Source of the DNA: an uncultured Acidimicrobiaceae bacterium
GTDB taxonomy: Bacteria > Actinomycetota > Acidimicrobiia > Acidimicrobiales > Aldehydirespiratoraceae
Length of the DNA stretch: 64,000 bases
Assembly: GCA_913041415.1 (NCBI GenBank)
Contig: CAJWHS010000005.1
Span: 218-64,217 of the forward strand
Reading direction: 5' to 3'
Shown: positions 2 to 53,338 of the stretch, piece after piece
How the letters are laid out: every line of letters begins with the position of its first letter
Position numbering within the stretch: position 1 is the first letter of the stretch
Program-made: the position numbers and the translations under genes
Notes under the pieces: model-generated
Told to the model about the DNA's origin: nothing
The model's input: only the letters and a program-made list of their open reading frames with translations
Databases searched by the model: none

Positions 2-820
2 ATGGGCATCATCAACGGCACGACCAACTACATCCTCACCAAGATGTCGCAGGAGGGAGCCAACTACGCCGACGCCCTCGCCGATGCGCAGGTGCTCGGG
101 TACGCCGAGGCCGATCCGACCGCCGACGTCGAGGGCTACGACGCCGGCGCCAAGGCCGCGATCATTGCGTCGATCGTGTTCGGCGTCGACGTCCGATCCA
201 GCGATGTGCAGCACGAGGGCATCTCATCGATCACCGCCGCCGACATCGACACCGCCAAGCGCCTCGGCTACGTCATCAAGGCGCTCGCTGTGATCGAGCG
301 CGCCAACGGCGAGGTCGCCGTCCGGGTGCATCCGGCGATGGTCCCCACCGGCCACCCGCTCGCCAACGTCAACGACTCGTTCAACGCAGTGTTCGTCGAA
401 GGCGCTACGGTAGGCGATCTCATGTTCTACGGGCGCGGTGCCGGCGGCGGTCCGACTGCCTCCGCCATACTCGGCGACCTCGTCGATGCCGCCGTCAACG
501 TGGCCAACGGTGCTGCGGCTCGGCTGTCGATCACCGAAAAGGCGATGCTGCGTTCGGTCGACGAACTCTCGTCGCAGTACTACCTGACCATGGTGGTCTC
601 CGATGAGCCCGGCGTGCTCGCCCAGGTGGCGACGGTCTTCGGCACCCACGGCGTGTCGATCCAGGTGATGGAGCAGTCGGGAACCGGTGGCGACGCTGAG
701 CTCTGCCTCATCTTGCACGAGATCACCGAAGCCGCCCTCCACGCAACCCTCGATGAGCTCGACGGTCTCGAGGTCGTGCGAGGGATCGGCTCGGTGATCC
801 GTCTCGTCAGCGACGACTGA
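2..820 (+). CDS. hom: homoserine dehydrogenase, C-terminal part (5' end outside window)
   Basis: ORF is open at the window edge. The translation has the catalytic-domain region AEADPTADVEGYDAGAKAAI and a C-terminal ACT-like regulatory segment. thrC follows 4 nt later. Confidence 0.9.
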   Translation: MGIINGTTNYILTKMSQEGANYADALADAQVLGYAEADPTADVEGYDAGAKAAIIASIVFGVDVRSSDVQHEGISSITAADIDTAKRLGYVIKALAVIERANGEVAVRVHPAMVPTGHPLANVNDSFNAVFVEGATVGDLMFYGRGAGGGPTASAILGDLVDAAVNVANGAAARLSITEKAMLRSVDELSSQYYLTMVVSDEPGVLAQVATVFGTHGVSIQVMEQSGTGGDAELCLILHEITEAALHATLDELDGLEVVRGIGSVIRLVSDD

Positions 821-46142: not shown

Positions 46143-48478
<2,336 letters not shown>

Positions 48479-48482
<4 letters not shown>

Positions 48483-49222
48483 GCGGGGACTCCGTCGTCT
48501 TCGTAGACGTAGCCGTCGGTGGCCATCGTGAGCCGATGCCGCGGCCCCGCGACCGTGCCGTCGCCGGTGTCGTAGCCGGCGTCGCCCTCCCACATCACGA
48601 CGGGGAAGTCGCCGCCCGACGCGACCTTGGTGGCGTGGTGGCGGGCGGGGCGTTCGTCGAGAAACTCGAGCAGCGACGCGACCGTGTCGTGGCCGGTGAG
48701 GGTGTCGAGCGTGACCCAGGTGGGTGGCACGATCTCGATCTCACCGTCGTGATGCTTGGCCAGCACTGCGGCCGGGGTGGCCCACGACATCTCGACGATT
48801 TCGCCGTCGTCGATGATCACGTCGTCGTCATCGACCGGAGCAGCGAAGAACCAGGTGGCGTAACGCTTCGGCGCGATCGCCGGCGGGATCCAGTGAGCGA
48901 ACACGACCATCTCGTGGGCCTCGACCCTCAAGTGCGCCTCTTCGGCCGCCTCGCGGATGGCGGCGTTGCGGGCGGCGTCGACGTCCTCGTCGGCCCCGTC
49001 CCAGTCCTCGTCGTCGACCTTGCCGCCGGGGAACACCCACATGCCACCGAACGCGATCTTGGAGTTCTTGCGCAGCATCAACGTCTCGGGGCCCTCGGGC
49101 CCGTCGCGCAACACGACGACCGTGGCGGCTGGCATGGCCGGCGTGTCGCCGGCCTCCTTTGCGAACGTCGCCCAGGCGGCGTGTCGCTTTCGATCGGTTT
49201 CGACACGGTCCTCGGCGCTCAT
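48479..49222 (-). CDS. NUDIX hydrolase
   Basis: 247-aa ORF with a Nudix box: GGKVDDE...AAIREAAEEAHL. Its stop overlaps the ATPase start by 4 nt. Confidence 0.85.
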
Positions 49223-49242: not shown

Positions 49243-49554
49243 TCAGCGGACCAGGTTGATCGGGCAGGGGGCGCCGTCGACCCCGTCGACATGCGCACCG
49301 ATACCTCGGCCGAGGAGACCGCTCTTCATCACCGTCACCTCGACTGGGAGGCGGGCGAGATCACGGTCGATCAAGATGACGACGTCGCCCACCTGTGTCC
49401 GGTGGTAGACGTCGAGCCTGCGGCCGGTTGCGCGAGTGTCGACCGACACCTCGAACTTCTTGCCTCAACCGTACGGCTCGAGCAGATCGACGATGGCCGT
49501 GCCGCCCTTCCGGGCGATGTTGGCCACGGCGGTTTCGGTGACATCGAGTCGCAT
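49243..49554 (-). CDS. small protein gene with one in-frame TGA (codon 30): candidate selenoprotein or nonsense-disrupted gene
   Basis: ATG 49554 opens MRLDVTETAVANIARKGGTAIVDLLEPYG, followed by TGA at 49465-49467. The same frame continues GKKFEVSVDTRATGRRLDVYHRTQVGDVVILIDRDL...INLVR to the stop at 49243. Both parts have high GC3. The tracked ORF 49243..49449 is only the downstream part. Confidence 0.45.
49434..49452 (-). other. bulged hairpin with GGUC tetraloop 13 nt downstream of the in-frame UGA (SECIS-like)
   Basis: On the minus-strand RNA: GAG(G)GUGUC-GGUC-GACACUC. That is 7 bp plus one bulged G, extendable by one C:G pair. The loop occupies nt 24-27 counted from the U of UGA. Confidence 0.3.
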
Positions 49555-49612
49555 GGCGGTGTGAACCGTTGCGGCTCCGCGGAAATTCCTCTATCACCCT
49601 CTTGCCATGAGA

Positions 49613-49626
49613 CGAACATATGTTCG
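49613..49626. promoter_or_regulatory. LexA SOS box upstream of / overlapping the imuA' start region
   Basis: The perfect palindrome CGAACATATGTTCG matches the Gram-positive/actinobacterial consensus CGAAC-N4-GTTCG. It is flanked by TTGCCA (49602-49607) and GATACT (49626-49631). Confidence 0.8.
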
Positions 49627-49637
49627 ATACTCGCGCG

Positions 49638-51892: not shown

Positions 51893-52174
51893 CCGGTCGC
51901 CTCGGTCTGCTCGTCGAGGACGTTCCGGATGGAGTCGGAGCGAGCCGTGATGACGGAGATCGTTTCGGTCAACCCGACAACCTGATCGCTATCGGTCATG
52001 ATGGGCGTGTGCAGCATGAACGCGGAACCTCATGACCCGCCTCTTCCAAGTCCGTGCCGTCGCCGGCTTCTGGCTCCACGTCTTCGCCGTCGAGCGCGAT
52101 GAGAGTTGGGAGTTCCGCAACCTCAAGAGCACGACGATGTGCAGCCGCAGTGGTACCCCCGGAGGCCTCTGCCT

Positions 52175-53338
52175 GTGACCGACATGACCGAACGTGACCG
52201 GTGCGAGCGGTGGTTCGTCCGGCGTGGCCTTCCTCACCTGATCGACGATTACACCGCCACCGACGACATCTTCACCCGCATGGCGCCGTTCCTCGCTGGT
52301 GTTGTCTTCCTCGAGTTCTTCCTTGCCTTCGGTGATCGGTGGACGGGCTGGTCCCAGACCGTCGCCTTCCTCGGTGGCATCGCTGCGCTCGTCAGTGGTG
52401 TCGTGCTCGTGAACCGCATCCGAGGCCGTCACTCGTTCCAGCTACCCGATGACATCGGCGTGTGGGAACTCGCCCTCTATGTGCTGTTGCCGATCGTGCC
52501 GACGGTCATCGGCTCGCAGGGGAGTGCCGTTGGGAACGCGGTCTCGGTCGTGGCGTTCAACCTCGTGCTTTTGGCGGTTGGCTATGTCGTTACGTCATGG
52601 GCGCTGATCCCGATGATGCGCTGGTCGTTCGGGCAGGTCCGGCGTCAGGTTACCGATGTCGCAAACCTGGCGATGAAGTCGCTGCCGACCTTGCTCATCT
52701 TCTCTGCCTTCATCTTCATCAACGCCGAGATGTGGCAGGTCGCGAATGATTTCACCCTGCTGTTGTTCGGCATGGTCATGCTGCTCCTAGCGGGGATCGG
52801 CGGCGTCTTCATCTTCGTGTCGGTTCGGCGCCTCACCGTCGACCTCGCCCGCTTCTCGGCGTGGGGTGATGTCCGCCCCCGATGTGCGAACACGCCGGTC
52901 GAGGAGATCATCCCCGCCGACGATGAGCCGGCCCCGGACTCTCCACCACTGGTGCGCCGAGCCGAATGGAACGTCAATCTGCTGTTGTTCGTCGCCCAGG
53001 GCATCCAGGTTCTGCTGGTGTCGCTCGTGATCACGGCGTTCTATGTGGTCTTCGGGCTGTTGACCGTTCGCGAGGAAACGCTGTTGCAGTGGACCACAGT
53101 CGGCGAATTGACCTACGAGCGAGATTGGGCTGTCGATATCGCGATCTTCGGCACCGACCTGATCTTGACCCGCCAGTTGTTGCTCGTTGCGCTCTTCATC
53201 GGGATGTTCTCGGGTCTGAACTTTGCGGTCCAGGTGATCACCGATGACACCTACCGTGAGGAGTTCATCGCCGACATGACCGCCGAGGTGCGCGACGCCC
53301 TCGCCGTGCGAGCGGTGTATCACCGGCGACTTGTATAG
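52175..53338 (+). CDS. hypothetical polytopic membrane protein
   Basis: Long ORF 52106..53338 with about 8 TM segments. I chose GTG 52175 (GGAGG lies 9 nt upstream); ATG 52184 is an alternative. I recognise no family. Confidence 0.6.
   Translation: MTDMTERDRCERWFVRRGLPHLIDDYTATDDIFTRMAPFLAGVVFLEFFLAFGDRWTGWSQTVAFLGGIAALVSGVVLVNRIRGRHSFQLPDDIGVWELALYVLLPIVPTVIGSQGSAVGNAVSVVAFNLVLLAVGYVVTSWALIPMMRWSFGQVRRQVTDVANLAMKSLPTLLIFSAFIFINAEMWQVANDFTLLLFGMVMLLLAGIGGVFIFVSVRRLTVDLARFSAWGDVRPRCANTPVEEIIPADDEPAPDSPPLVRRAEWNVNLLLFVAQGIQVLLVSLVITAFYVVFGLLTVREETLLQWTTVGELTYERDWAVDIAIFGTDLILTRQLLLVALFIGMFSGLNFAVQVITDDTYREEFIADMTAEVRDALAVRAVYHRRLV

Follow-up and report, generated by a model that had tools for sequence, protein, structure and literature searches.

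Results

A reading frame interrupted by a single TGA

The window analysed here is a stretch of 64,000 nucleotides (nt) from an uncultured Acidimicrobiaceae bacterium (contig CAJWHS010000005.1). On its minus strand, at 49243-49554, one continuous frame consists of 29 codons, a TGA and a further 73 codons. We consider it probable that this region encodes a true selenoprotein, in which the TGA would encode selenocysteine (Sec), and that its family, with a HesB/IscA-like fold, has gone unannotated although it is common in marine Acidimicrobiales. The features discussed below, including a candidate selenocysteine insertion sequence (SECIS), are as follows.

49243-49554, minus strand: proposed selenoprotein gene of 103 codons, with ATG at 49552-49554, Sec-UGA as codon 30 and stop TGA at 49243-49245
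49468-49554, minus strand: N-terminal module, codons 1-29 (MRLDVTETAVANIARKGGTAIVDLLEPYG), predicted strand-helix-strand of a HesB/IscA-like fold
49465-49467, minus strand: in-frame TGA, codon 30, proposed selenocysteine codon
49422-49467, minus strand: proposed bacterial SECIS, an imperfect hairpin from the UGA onward (nt 1-46), from an RNAalifold consensus
49434-49452, minus strand: apical hairpin GAG(G)UGUC-GGUC-GACACUC; its GGUC loop occupies 49441-49444, and its 5' arm has a single bulged purine
49264-49266, minus strand: Cys97 codon TGC, the sole Cys of the protein; column C97 is invariant in every lineage aligned

The predicted product reads MRLDVTETAVANIARKGGTAIVDLLEPYG-U-GKKFEVSVDT...GAPCPINLVR. 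Gene callers omit the N-terminal module (N-module) or call it as a separate open reading frame (ORF) of 29 residues. The remainder (C-domain) is called as a 68-residue ORF from the GTG at 49447-49449 (codon 36, GTG36), five sense codons (GKKFE) after the TGA. An earlier interpretation made from the DNA alone (the sequence-only reading) had described both ORFs, their shared frame and the five codons between them, all of which are present. It had also noted GC-biased third positions in both halves, and this is confirmed: the G+C (GC) fraction at codon positions 1/2/3 is 0.69/0.45/0.83 upstream of the TGA and 0.72/0.40/0.82 downstream. On both sides this is the pattern of coding sequence in this genome, whose GC content is 66%.

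Genome-wide reassignment of TGA is ruled out, as TGA is the terminator of 44 of the 56 ORFs in the window. A search for further in-frame TGA candidates in the window and the related loci returned only same-frame neighbouring genes with their own starts. Of the other broken genes that the sequence-only reading had mentioned, none was confirmed as a selenoprotein candidate in the window.

Close orthologues retain the TGA and freeze the codons around it

Used as a protein query, the joined sequence recovered 32 relatives with identities of 64-93%, all 32 annotated as proteins of 67-68 residues that span the C-terminal two-thirds only. DNA was read for 21 full-length orthologous copies (19 distinct sequences), whose sources are metagenomes or metagenome-assembled genomes (MAGs) of marine Acidimicrobiales. 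Every one of the 21 has the N-module of 29 codons, the TGA at codon 30 and an unbroken frame, which settles in the affirmative the question, raised by the sequence-only reading, of whether orthologues keep the N-terminal codons and the TGA. Among the distinct orthologues, which have pairwise nucleotide identities down to 73%, the TGA stands at codon 30 in 19 of 19. The sequences were located by an exact 20-mer; its use did not bias the set, because every locus fetched by protein homology contained it.

Substitution patterns bear on translation of the two halves. Variable sites in the N-module number 12/7/22 at codon positions 1/2/3. The synonymous rate per codon per pair is 0.265 in the N-module and 0.253 in the C-domain, while the corresponding non-synonymous rates are 0.169 and 0.261. 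By these measures the N-module evolves, like the C-domain, as translated sequence, and is under purifying selection.

Codons 29-39 (GGT TGA GGC AAG AAG TTC GAG GTG TCG GTC GAC) behave differently from the rest of the gene. Outside them nearly all degenerate codons vary; within them there is no synonymous change at all, and they include five four-fold degenerate codons as well as the non-preferred GGT at codon 29. This run of 11 codons is the longest without synonymous change, and none of 200,000 permutations equalled it. The hairpin core, GAGGTGTCGGTCGACAC, is invariant across all orthologues; together with the next C it forms an 18-mer.

Remote lineages share the TGA and an identical 18-mer

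A search with a family profile found many further relatives, likewise called from GTG36, and the database clusters called from this codon number more than 100. Three remote lineages, in unrelated gene neighbourhoods, have a 29-codon N-module of like pattern and a TGA at codon 30.

L029-31: 31% protein identity, GC 0.61, adjoining a gene for an Rv2466c-like thiol reductase
L032-33: 35% protein identity, GC 0.75, adjoining histidine-utilisation (hut) genes
L034: 54% protein identity, GC 0.73

The 18-mer GAGGTGTCGGTCGACACC is identical in all TGA-bearing lineages at these protein identities of 31-54%. The spacer between the TGA and the 18-mer is always 12 nt long and differs in sequence (GGCAAGGTTGCC, GGGGGACGTGCC, GGTAAGCGGTAC). 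The part of the hairpin shared by the remote lineages is the apical portion only, and the lower stem is not conserved. RNA frozen base for base at a fixed distance from a UGA, across roughly 30% protein identity, is what a SECIS would be predicted to show. We judge the comparative evidence as a whole, with the TGA kept in the orthologues and in three remote lineages and the frozen run of 11 codons, to be far beyond chance.

The L029 type (L029:3358-3657, also in L030 and L031) is a second and more abundant TGA-containing paralogue type. It is called as 64-residue proteins, 'MSVDTNTKGKNLAPYRR...GGACAI', in more than 40 clusters, one of them from an Acidimicrobiales MAG. Its location beside a thiol reductase gene, and not beside NUDIX and ATPase genes, fits a redox role.

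The hairpin downstream of the UGA

The sequence-only reading had described a hairpin that has a bulged purine and whose GGUC loop, counted from the U of the UGA, lies at nt 24-27; the structure is there as described. In the apical stem G16 pairs with C34 and A17 with U33; a bulged G follows, and then five more base pairs (bp). On the same count the stem starts at nt 16-18; it has 6-8 bp with one bulged purine, and G/U is present in the apical loop. Most predicted folds extend the apical stem into an imperfect hairpin that begins at the UGA, and the RNAalifold consensus has 12 pairs, from G4-C46 to C23-G28. Pairs that vary belong to the lower stem and change solely from G-C to G-U or from U-A to U-G.

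The account of the Escherichia coli fdhF element in the sequence-only reading was also accurate: downstream of UGA140 in E. coli K-12 lies a hairpin whose GGUC loop occupies nt 22-25 and which has a bulged U. The element described here resembles it in lying right after the UGA, in its apical GGUC and in having one bulged nucleotide in the 5' arm below a short upper stem. It differs as follows: the loop, at nt 24-27, stands 2 nt farther from the UGA; the upper stem is longer, with 5-6 bp against 4; and the bulged nucleotide is a purine (G or A) where fdhF has U.

A generic SECIS-like hairpin can be found behind 5.6% of all the window's TGA triplets, which is the chance level. The stricter combination of a GGUC tetraloop, a stem of at least 6 bp and the right distance is found at 2 of 1676 window TGAs. 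The second of these, at 52747 on the plus strand, is out of frame with the surrounding ORF and is probably a chance occurrence. Taken alone, then, the hairpin is weak evidence, and because it is unremarkable by itself, the case rests on the comparative data.

Homologues without the TGA

Two homologues run uninterrupted through the column of the TGA, and both are singleton clusters. P0083, a protein of 100 residues (E = 8e-26 against the family profile), has Cys in this column: it reads ...ITPVS-C-GGRAEVAVDT..., compared with ...VPPIS-TGA-GGRAEVSVDT... in L032. The TGA thus has a Cys counterpart in a full-length homologue, in keeping with the suggestion of the sequence-only reading that the UGA falls at a Cys-equivalent position. 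P0084, of 101 residues, has Trp there (KPIG-W-GG), followed by ...GGVQELSVDT. It comes from a JGI metagenome, on a contig of 7410 nt, and TGG is one mutation from TGA; the Trp may have rescued the gene once Sec was lost, may be an error, or may hint at read-through by Trp. Since P0083 and P0084 are uninterrupted, the two halves of the frame are one protein. As read from the protein sequences, the peptide that encodes the hairpin is altered in both, to EVAVDT in P0083 and ELSVDT in P0084. The Cys form emerged only with a profile that included the remote members; an exhaustive HMMER search with the C-domain alone returned 13 clusters and no Cys form. P0083, from a Logan assembly, has a precomputed Pfam match to PF28096, which may already describe the fold or the family.

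A further set of homologues (Form B; L005:151-375, L025:308-517 and L026:1242-1454) starts with M-FEVSVDT behind a GAGGG motif that resembles a Shine-Dalgarno sequence. Drift of the hairpin codons has given two of the three copies an AGUU loop, in one case along with a mismatched stem pair. The hairpin is frozen where the TGA is present and drifts where it is absent; the frozen hairpin therefore goes with the TGA. Form B may represent remnants after loss of Sec decoding, or functional half-domains. It lacks the module that the predicted fold makes integral, and L026 keeps the NUDIX and P-type ATPase genes downstream.

Several database homologues, namely P0026, P0034, P0044 and P0046, are assembly chimeras in which family sequence is joined to unrelated, often low-GC, sequence. 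In P0080 the ORF has been called too long, and its end coincides exactly with the TGA.

Family assignment

For the joined proteins of every lineage, the only or best NCBIfam match is NF041239, the CC/Se motif family (seleno)protein. The sequence-only reading had suggested a resemblance to proteins of the CC/Se type, and NF041239 is indeed the sole family matched, at scores below its cutoff. The alignment is collinear, residues 1-77..89 matching positions 1-79..89 of the 91 in the profile, and both halves contribute; the N-module of L029 alone matches profile positions 1-26. Scores are 15.1-30.9 bits with C placed at the TGA position and 12.6-24.9 with X. The effect of the residue at that position is illustrated by L004.

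C at the TGA position: 30.9 bits, E = 2e-7
X at the TGA position: 24.9 bits, E = 1.6e-5
W at the TGA position: 24.1 bits
Residue deleted: 22.6 bits
C-domain alone: 13.2 bits
Reversed sequence (control): no match

When X takes the place of C, each of the three orthologues tested loses 6.0 bits and the remote lineages lose 5.6-6.0; the counterpart of the TGA in NF041239 is therefore a strongly conserved Cys column. The family is a distant sister group of NF041239 and not a member: its scores stay below the cutoff, and the paired Cys/Sec motif CxxU is absent. The residue three before Sec is P, A or P, and there is no second Cys nearby.

Other models gave little. TIGR01911, which we take to describe a small HesB/IscA-related selenoprotein with Sec in place of the HesB Cys, has no match here at E <= 10, and its UxGP motif is absent, the family having U-G-K/G. 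Neither the joined proteins nor the family profile found a match in Pfam or among PDB sequences. TIGR00049 (A-type Fe-S carrier) reached 12.1 bits (E = 0.16, cutoff 58.8), with P0083 only. An hhalign comparison of the family with E. coli IscA, SufA and ErpA was not significant (probability 2%, 9 residues aligned).

Predicted fold and candidate ligand residues

Structure was modelled for the Cys homologue P0083, with AlphaFold2, rather than for the window protein. The model is a single domain that includes the N-module, with a predicted local distance difference test (pLDDT) score of 85.5 and a predicted template modelling (pTM) score of 0.76. The N-module forms a strand-helix-strand at pLDDT 93-94, and residue 30 lies in the next loop. 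Top PDB matches by Foldseek are 2apn, 2d2a, 1x0g, 1r94, 1s98 and 1nwb; the first five (HI1723, SufA, IscA) have probability 1.00 and template modelling (TM) scores of 0.55-0.61 over 87-97 columns. The HesB/IscA-like fold surmised in the sequence-only reading is thereby supported, in that the model of the Cys form matches IscA, SufA and HesB structures.

Residues invariant across all lineages include U30, G31 and the single Cys97. The C-terminal motifs are APCP, ACAI and ACRH; C-x-C is absent, and U30 and C97 are the only invariant candidates for ligands. On the model, U30 would correspond to the first ligand Cys of IscA. Cys97, by its position near the C-terminus, would correspond to the C-terminal ligand cysteines of IscA, and it is likely the partner of Sec30.

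Discussion

Proposed decoding of the TGA

In the mechanism that we favour, translation would start at ATG 49554, and the SECIS hairpin just 3' of UGA codon 30 would recruit SelB carrying Sec-tRNA(Sec) by means of an fdhF-like layout (12-nt spacer, stem of 6-8 bp, one bulged purine, GGUC loop). Selenocysteine would be inserted at codon 30 and the ribosome would continue to the stop at 49243. The product is predicted to adopt the HesB/IscA/SufA-like fold of A-type iron-sulfur carriers, with Sec30 in the loop between strands 2 and 3 and a Gly before it. Sec30 and Cys97 would most likely form a selenenylsulfide redox pair, or else a binding site for a metal, an Fe-S cluster or selenium.

A number of results weigh against Sec decoding. 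Conservation of the hairpin with compensatory changes had been put forward as a check in the sequence-only reading; conservation is seen, the hairpin being frozen together with the TGA, but double compensatory changes number 0 and the apical 18 nt never vary. There is no compensatory covariation in the apical stem because the stem is invariant, and the constraint appears as zero synonymous change rather than as covariation. The folding energy is unremarkable (z = -1.1 relative to shuffles), and the peptide V-S-V-D-T (GUG UCn GUn GAC ACn) is enough by itself to specify the stem GUGUC/GACAC and an nGUn loop. An Rfam search at gathering and permissive thresholds returned no SECIS or tRNA-Sec match, in a database with poor coverage of bacterial SECIS elements. 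All NF041239 scores fall below the curated cutoff of 40 bits. The one Cys form, P0083, is known as a protein sequence, from a singleton cluster on two short contigs. The proposal that homologues share the N-terminal codons with a Cys or TGA holds for the close orthologues and the three remote lineages and fails for some distant sequences: P0084 has Trp, and in L005, L025 and L026 the N-module is absent in any frame.

To these is added the outcome for the Sec-decoding genes. The window and 24 loci were scanned with ARAGORN, and E. coli SelA, SelB, SelD and FdhF served as tblastn queries; no selA, selB, selD or tRNA-Sec was seen in 336 kilobases of gene neighbourhoods from these lineages, a null that is uninformative because only gene neighbourhoods were covered and absence there is expected by chance. 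SelA, SelB and SelD are reported in a sponge-associated marine Acidimicrobiales bin with a GC content of 65.7% (PMC5649159 Table S4), and selA, selB, selC and selD in 84 of 84 complete Actinomarina genomes of the Actinomarinales, in the same class (bioRxiv 10.64898/2026.04.03.716425). For this gene the literature supports Sec decoding at the level of order and class only. A selA was also found on an Arthrobacter plasmid, but matches to it could not have been tied to the genomes that carry the present gene.

The same region might instead yield two polypeptides, which we regard as quite improbable. The 29-codon ORF would end at the TGA, and ribosomes would re-initiate at GTG36, 15 nt downstream, to make a 68-residue protein; the hairpin would hide the GTG until melted by the terminating ribosome, and the frozen nucleotides would be signals for translational coupling. 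Gene callers do report exactly these two ORFs, GTG36 is invariant and located in the 5' arm of the stem, the C-domain stands alone in Form B, where M-FEVSVDT follows the GAGGG motif, and the support for Sec machinery comes from related taxa. Yet full-length homologues exist as single ORFs whose residue in the TGA column is Cys or Trp; the N-module supplies a strand-helix-strand that is integral to the predicted HesB/IscA-like domain and aligns, collinearly with the C-domain, to one single-chain profile; and the frame across the TGA is preserved in four separate lineages. Moreover, codons 31-35 would be untranslated, yet K changes to R there, once via two nucleotide changes, and no Shine-Dalgarno sequence lies at a normal distance from GTG36. 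If there is one polypeptide, its residue 30 might still be something other than selenocysteine, the UGA being read by a near-cognate tRNA (Trp or Cys) with help from the hairpin. Sec-independent read-through of this kind fits an fdhF-like hairpin and a Cys column less well than Sec decoding does: the hairpin has the SelB-binding design of fdhF, with the GGUC loop and bulge at the canonical distance, and the aligned column is a conserved Cys worth 5.6-6.0 bits for which a Cys form exists. In addition, PMC13188914 recognises NF041239 as a Sec/Cys family, related Acidimicrobiia are reported to have Sec machinery (PMC5649159; bioRxiv 10.64898/2026.04.03.716425), and obligate, inefficient read-through would be hard to maintain in more than 100 sequence clusters. 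The Trp at position 30 of P0084, with TGG one step from TGA, does point toward such read-through, as do the near-equal scores of W and X against NF041239 (24.1 and 24.9 bits) and, again, the reliance on related taxa for the Sec machinery, and we rank it level with the production of two polypeptides, as a poor prospect.

The sequence-only reading had offered a plainer alternative, in which a recent nonsense mutation (TGC/TGT/TGG to TGA) broke the gene and the GTCGAC palindrome close to it is a chance occurrence. Such palindromes are common in high-GC DNA, and the 5.6% of window TGAs followed by a generic SECIS-like hairpin are in keeping with this view. The comparative data exclude it, with the TGA present in all orthologues and in the remote lineages, purifying selection on either side, and the more than 100 database clusters called from GTG36 as the signature of the same interruption; we give it next to no credence.

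Relation to known systems

NF041239 (Moor_selen_rel, predicted in Moorella thermoacetica) is, like the present family, a single domain of about 91-103 residues, collinear with it and known in Sec and Cys forms. It is listed as a recognised Sec/Cys family with the motif CxxU (PMC13188914 Table 1). This CxxU/CC motif is absent here, where the sequences read E-P-Y-G-U, S-A-V-G-U and P-P-I-S-U and the other Cys lies about 67 residues downstream of Sec. The distribution also differs, the present family being found in marine and other Acidimicrobiales rather than in Moorella-type anaerobes. The HesB-like selenoprotein family TIGR01911 is experimentally verified and has the motif UxGP (PMC13188914 Table 1), unlike the G-U-G-K/G found here. 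The Cys-form model has the same order of secondary structure as IscA, SufA and ErpA (1r94, 1s98, 1x0g, 2d2a; HI1723, 2apn), and the first Cys or Sec follows a Gly in the loop past strand 2 (G-C-S-G in IscA, G-U-G-K here). In contrast to the A-type carriers, the family has two of the three canonical ligands, with one C-terminal Cys in place of C-x-C; there is no significant sequence similarity, and isc/suf genes are not nearby.

The family is not among the 119 families inventoried in PMC13188914, and that inventory describes no selenoprotein in an SOS/mutasome-type context. Should the selenoprotein assignment be correct, more than 100 clusters now annotated as hypothetical proteins of 64-69 residues would be truncated to the C-terminal two-thirds of a selenoprotein, and the catalytic residue and one third of the fold would be missing from every database record. 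The prokaryotic selenoproteome would gain a family whose Sec motif differs from that of its distant sister NF041239, and Sec decoding would be widespread in marine high-GC Acidimicrobiales. A natural SECIS as clean as this one (18 invariant nt, fixed 12-nt spacing) could seed searches, by pattern or by covariance model, for more actinobacterial selenoproteins. The advance is incremental, in that computation regularly yields new selenoprotein families and the recoding mechanism is standard.

Gene neighbourhood and a LexA-like box

Features flanking the small gene are as follows.

48479-49222, minus strand: NUDIX hydrolase gene, 20 nt downstream of the proposed selenoprotein gene (PF00293 in orthologous loci)
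46143-48482, minus strand: P-type ATPase gene, its start overlapping the NUDIX stop (TIGR01494, 223 bits, cutoff 62)
49612-49627, no strand assigned: LexA (SOS) box-like palindrome TCGAACATATGTTCGT, overlapping the ATG of imuA' and 73 nt upstream of the ATG of the small gene

The adjacency of the small gene and the NUDIX gene is kept in L001, L003, L017, L019, L021 and L022, and that of the NUDIX and ATPase genes in L001, L003, L004 and L026. No specific subfamily model reaches its cutoff for the P-type ATPase. The small gene would thus stand first in a probable operon, with the NUDIX hydrolase likely its second gene and the P-type ATPase likely its third. On the other side lie a divergent imuA' (139 bits, cutoff 65), an imuB-like gene and dnaE2.

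Most copies carry, 60-95 nt upstream of the small gene, a GAAC-N4-GTTC box, which L004 and L014 lack. It is also kept in L015 and L019-L022, where another gene separates the small gene from imuA'; in L019-L022 an HNH/DUF222 gene is inserted between the two, and the box at -61 is the small gene's own. Because a LexA-box-like palindrome is usually upstream, the small gene is probably under LexA control and induced by DNA damage. The recurrent site and the NUDIX and ATPase partners make a testable hypothesis on the function of the protein. In its boldest form, which we advance tentatively and think doubtful, the gene would found an unrecognised, almost wholly Sec-dependent branch of HesB/IscA-like proteins, controlled by LexA and working with the NUDIX hydrolase and the ATPase beside the ImuA'-ImuB-DnaE2 mutasome. 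Such a branch would tie selenium redox chemistry or the handling of Fe-S clusters or metals to the DNA-damage response of abundant marine Actinobacteria.

Elsewhere the window has the content of an ordinary chromosome, with thrC, rho, the atp operon, prfA and glyA among its genes. Between imuB and dnaE2, an ORF of 411 residues (52103-53335, plus strand) has a strong coding signature and matches nothing in Pfam or NCBIfam; related loci have unannotated ORFs in the corresponding place (L001 5601-7540, L003 5812-7005).

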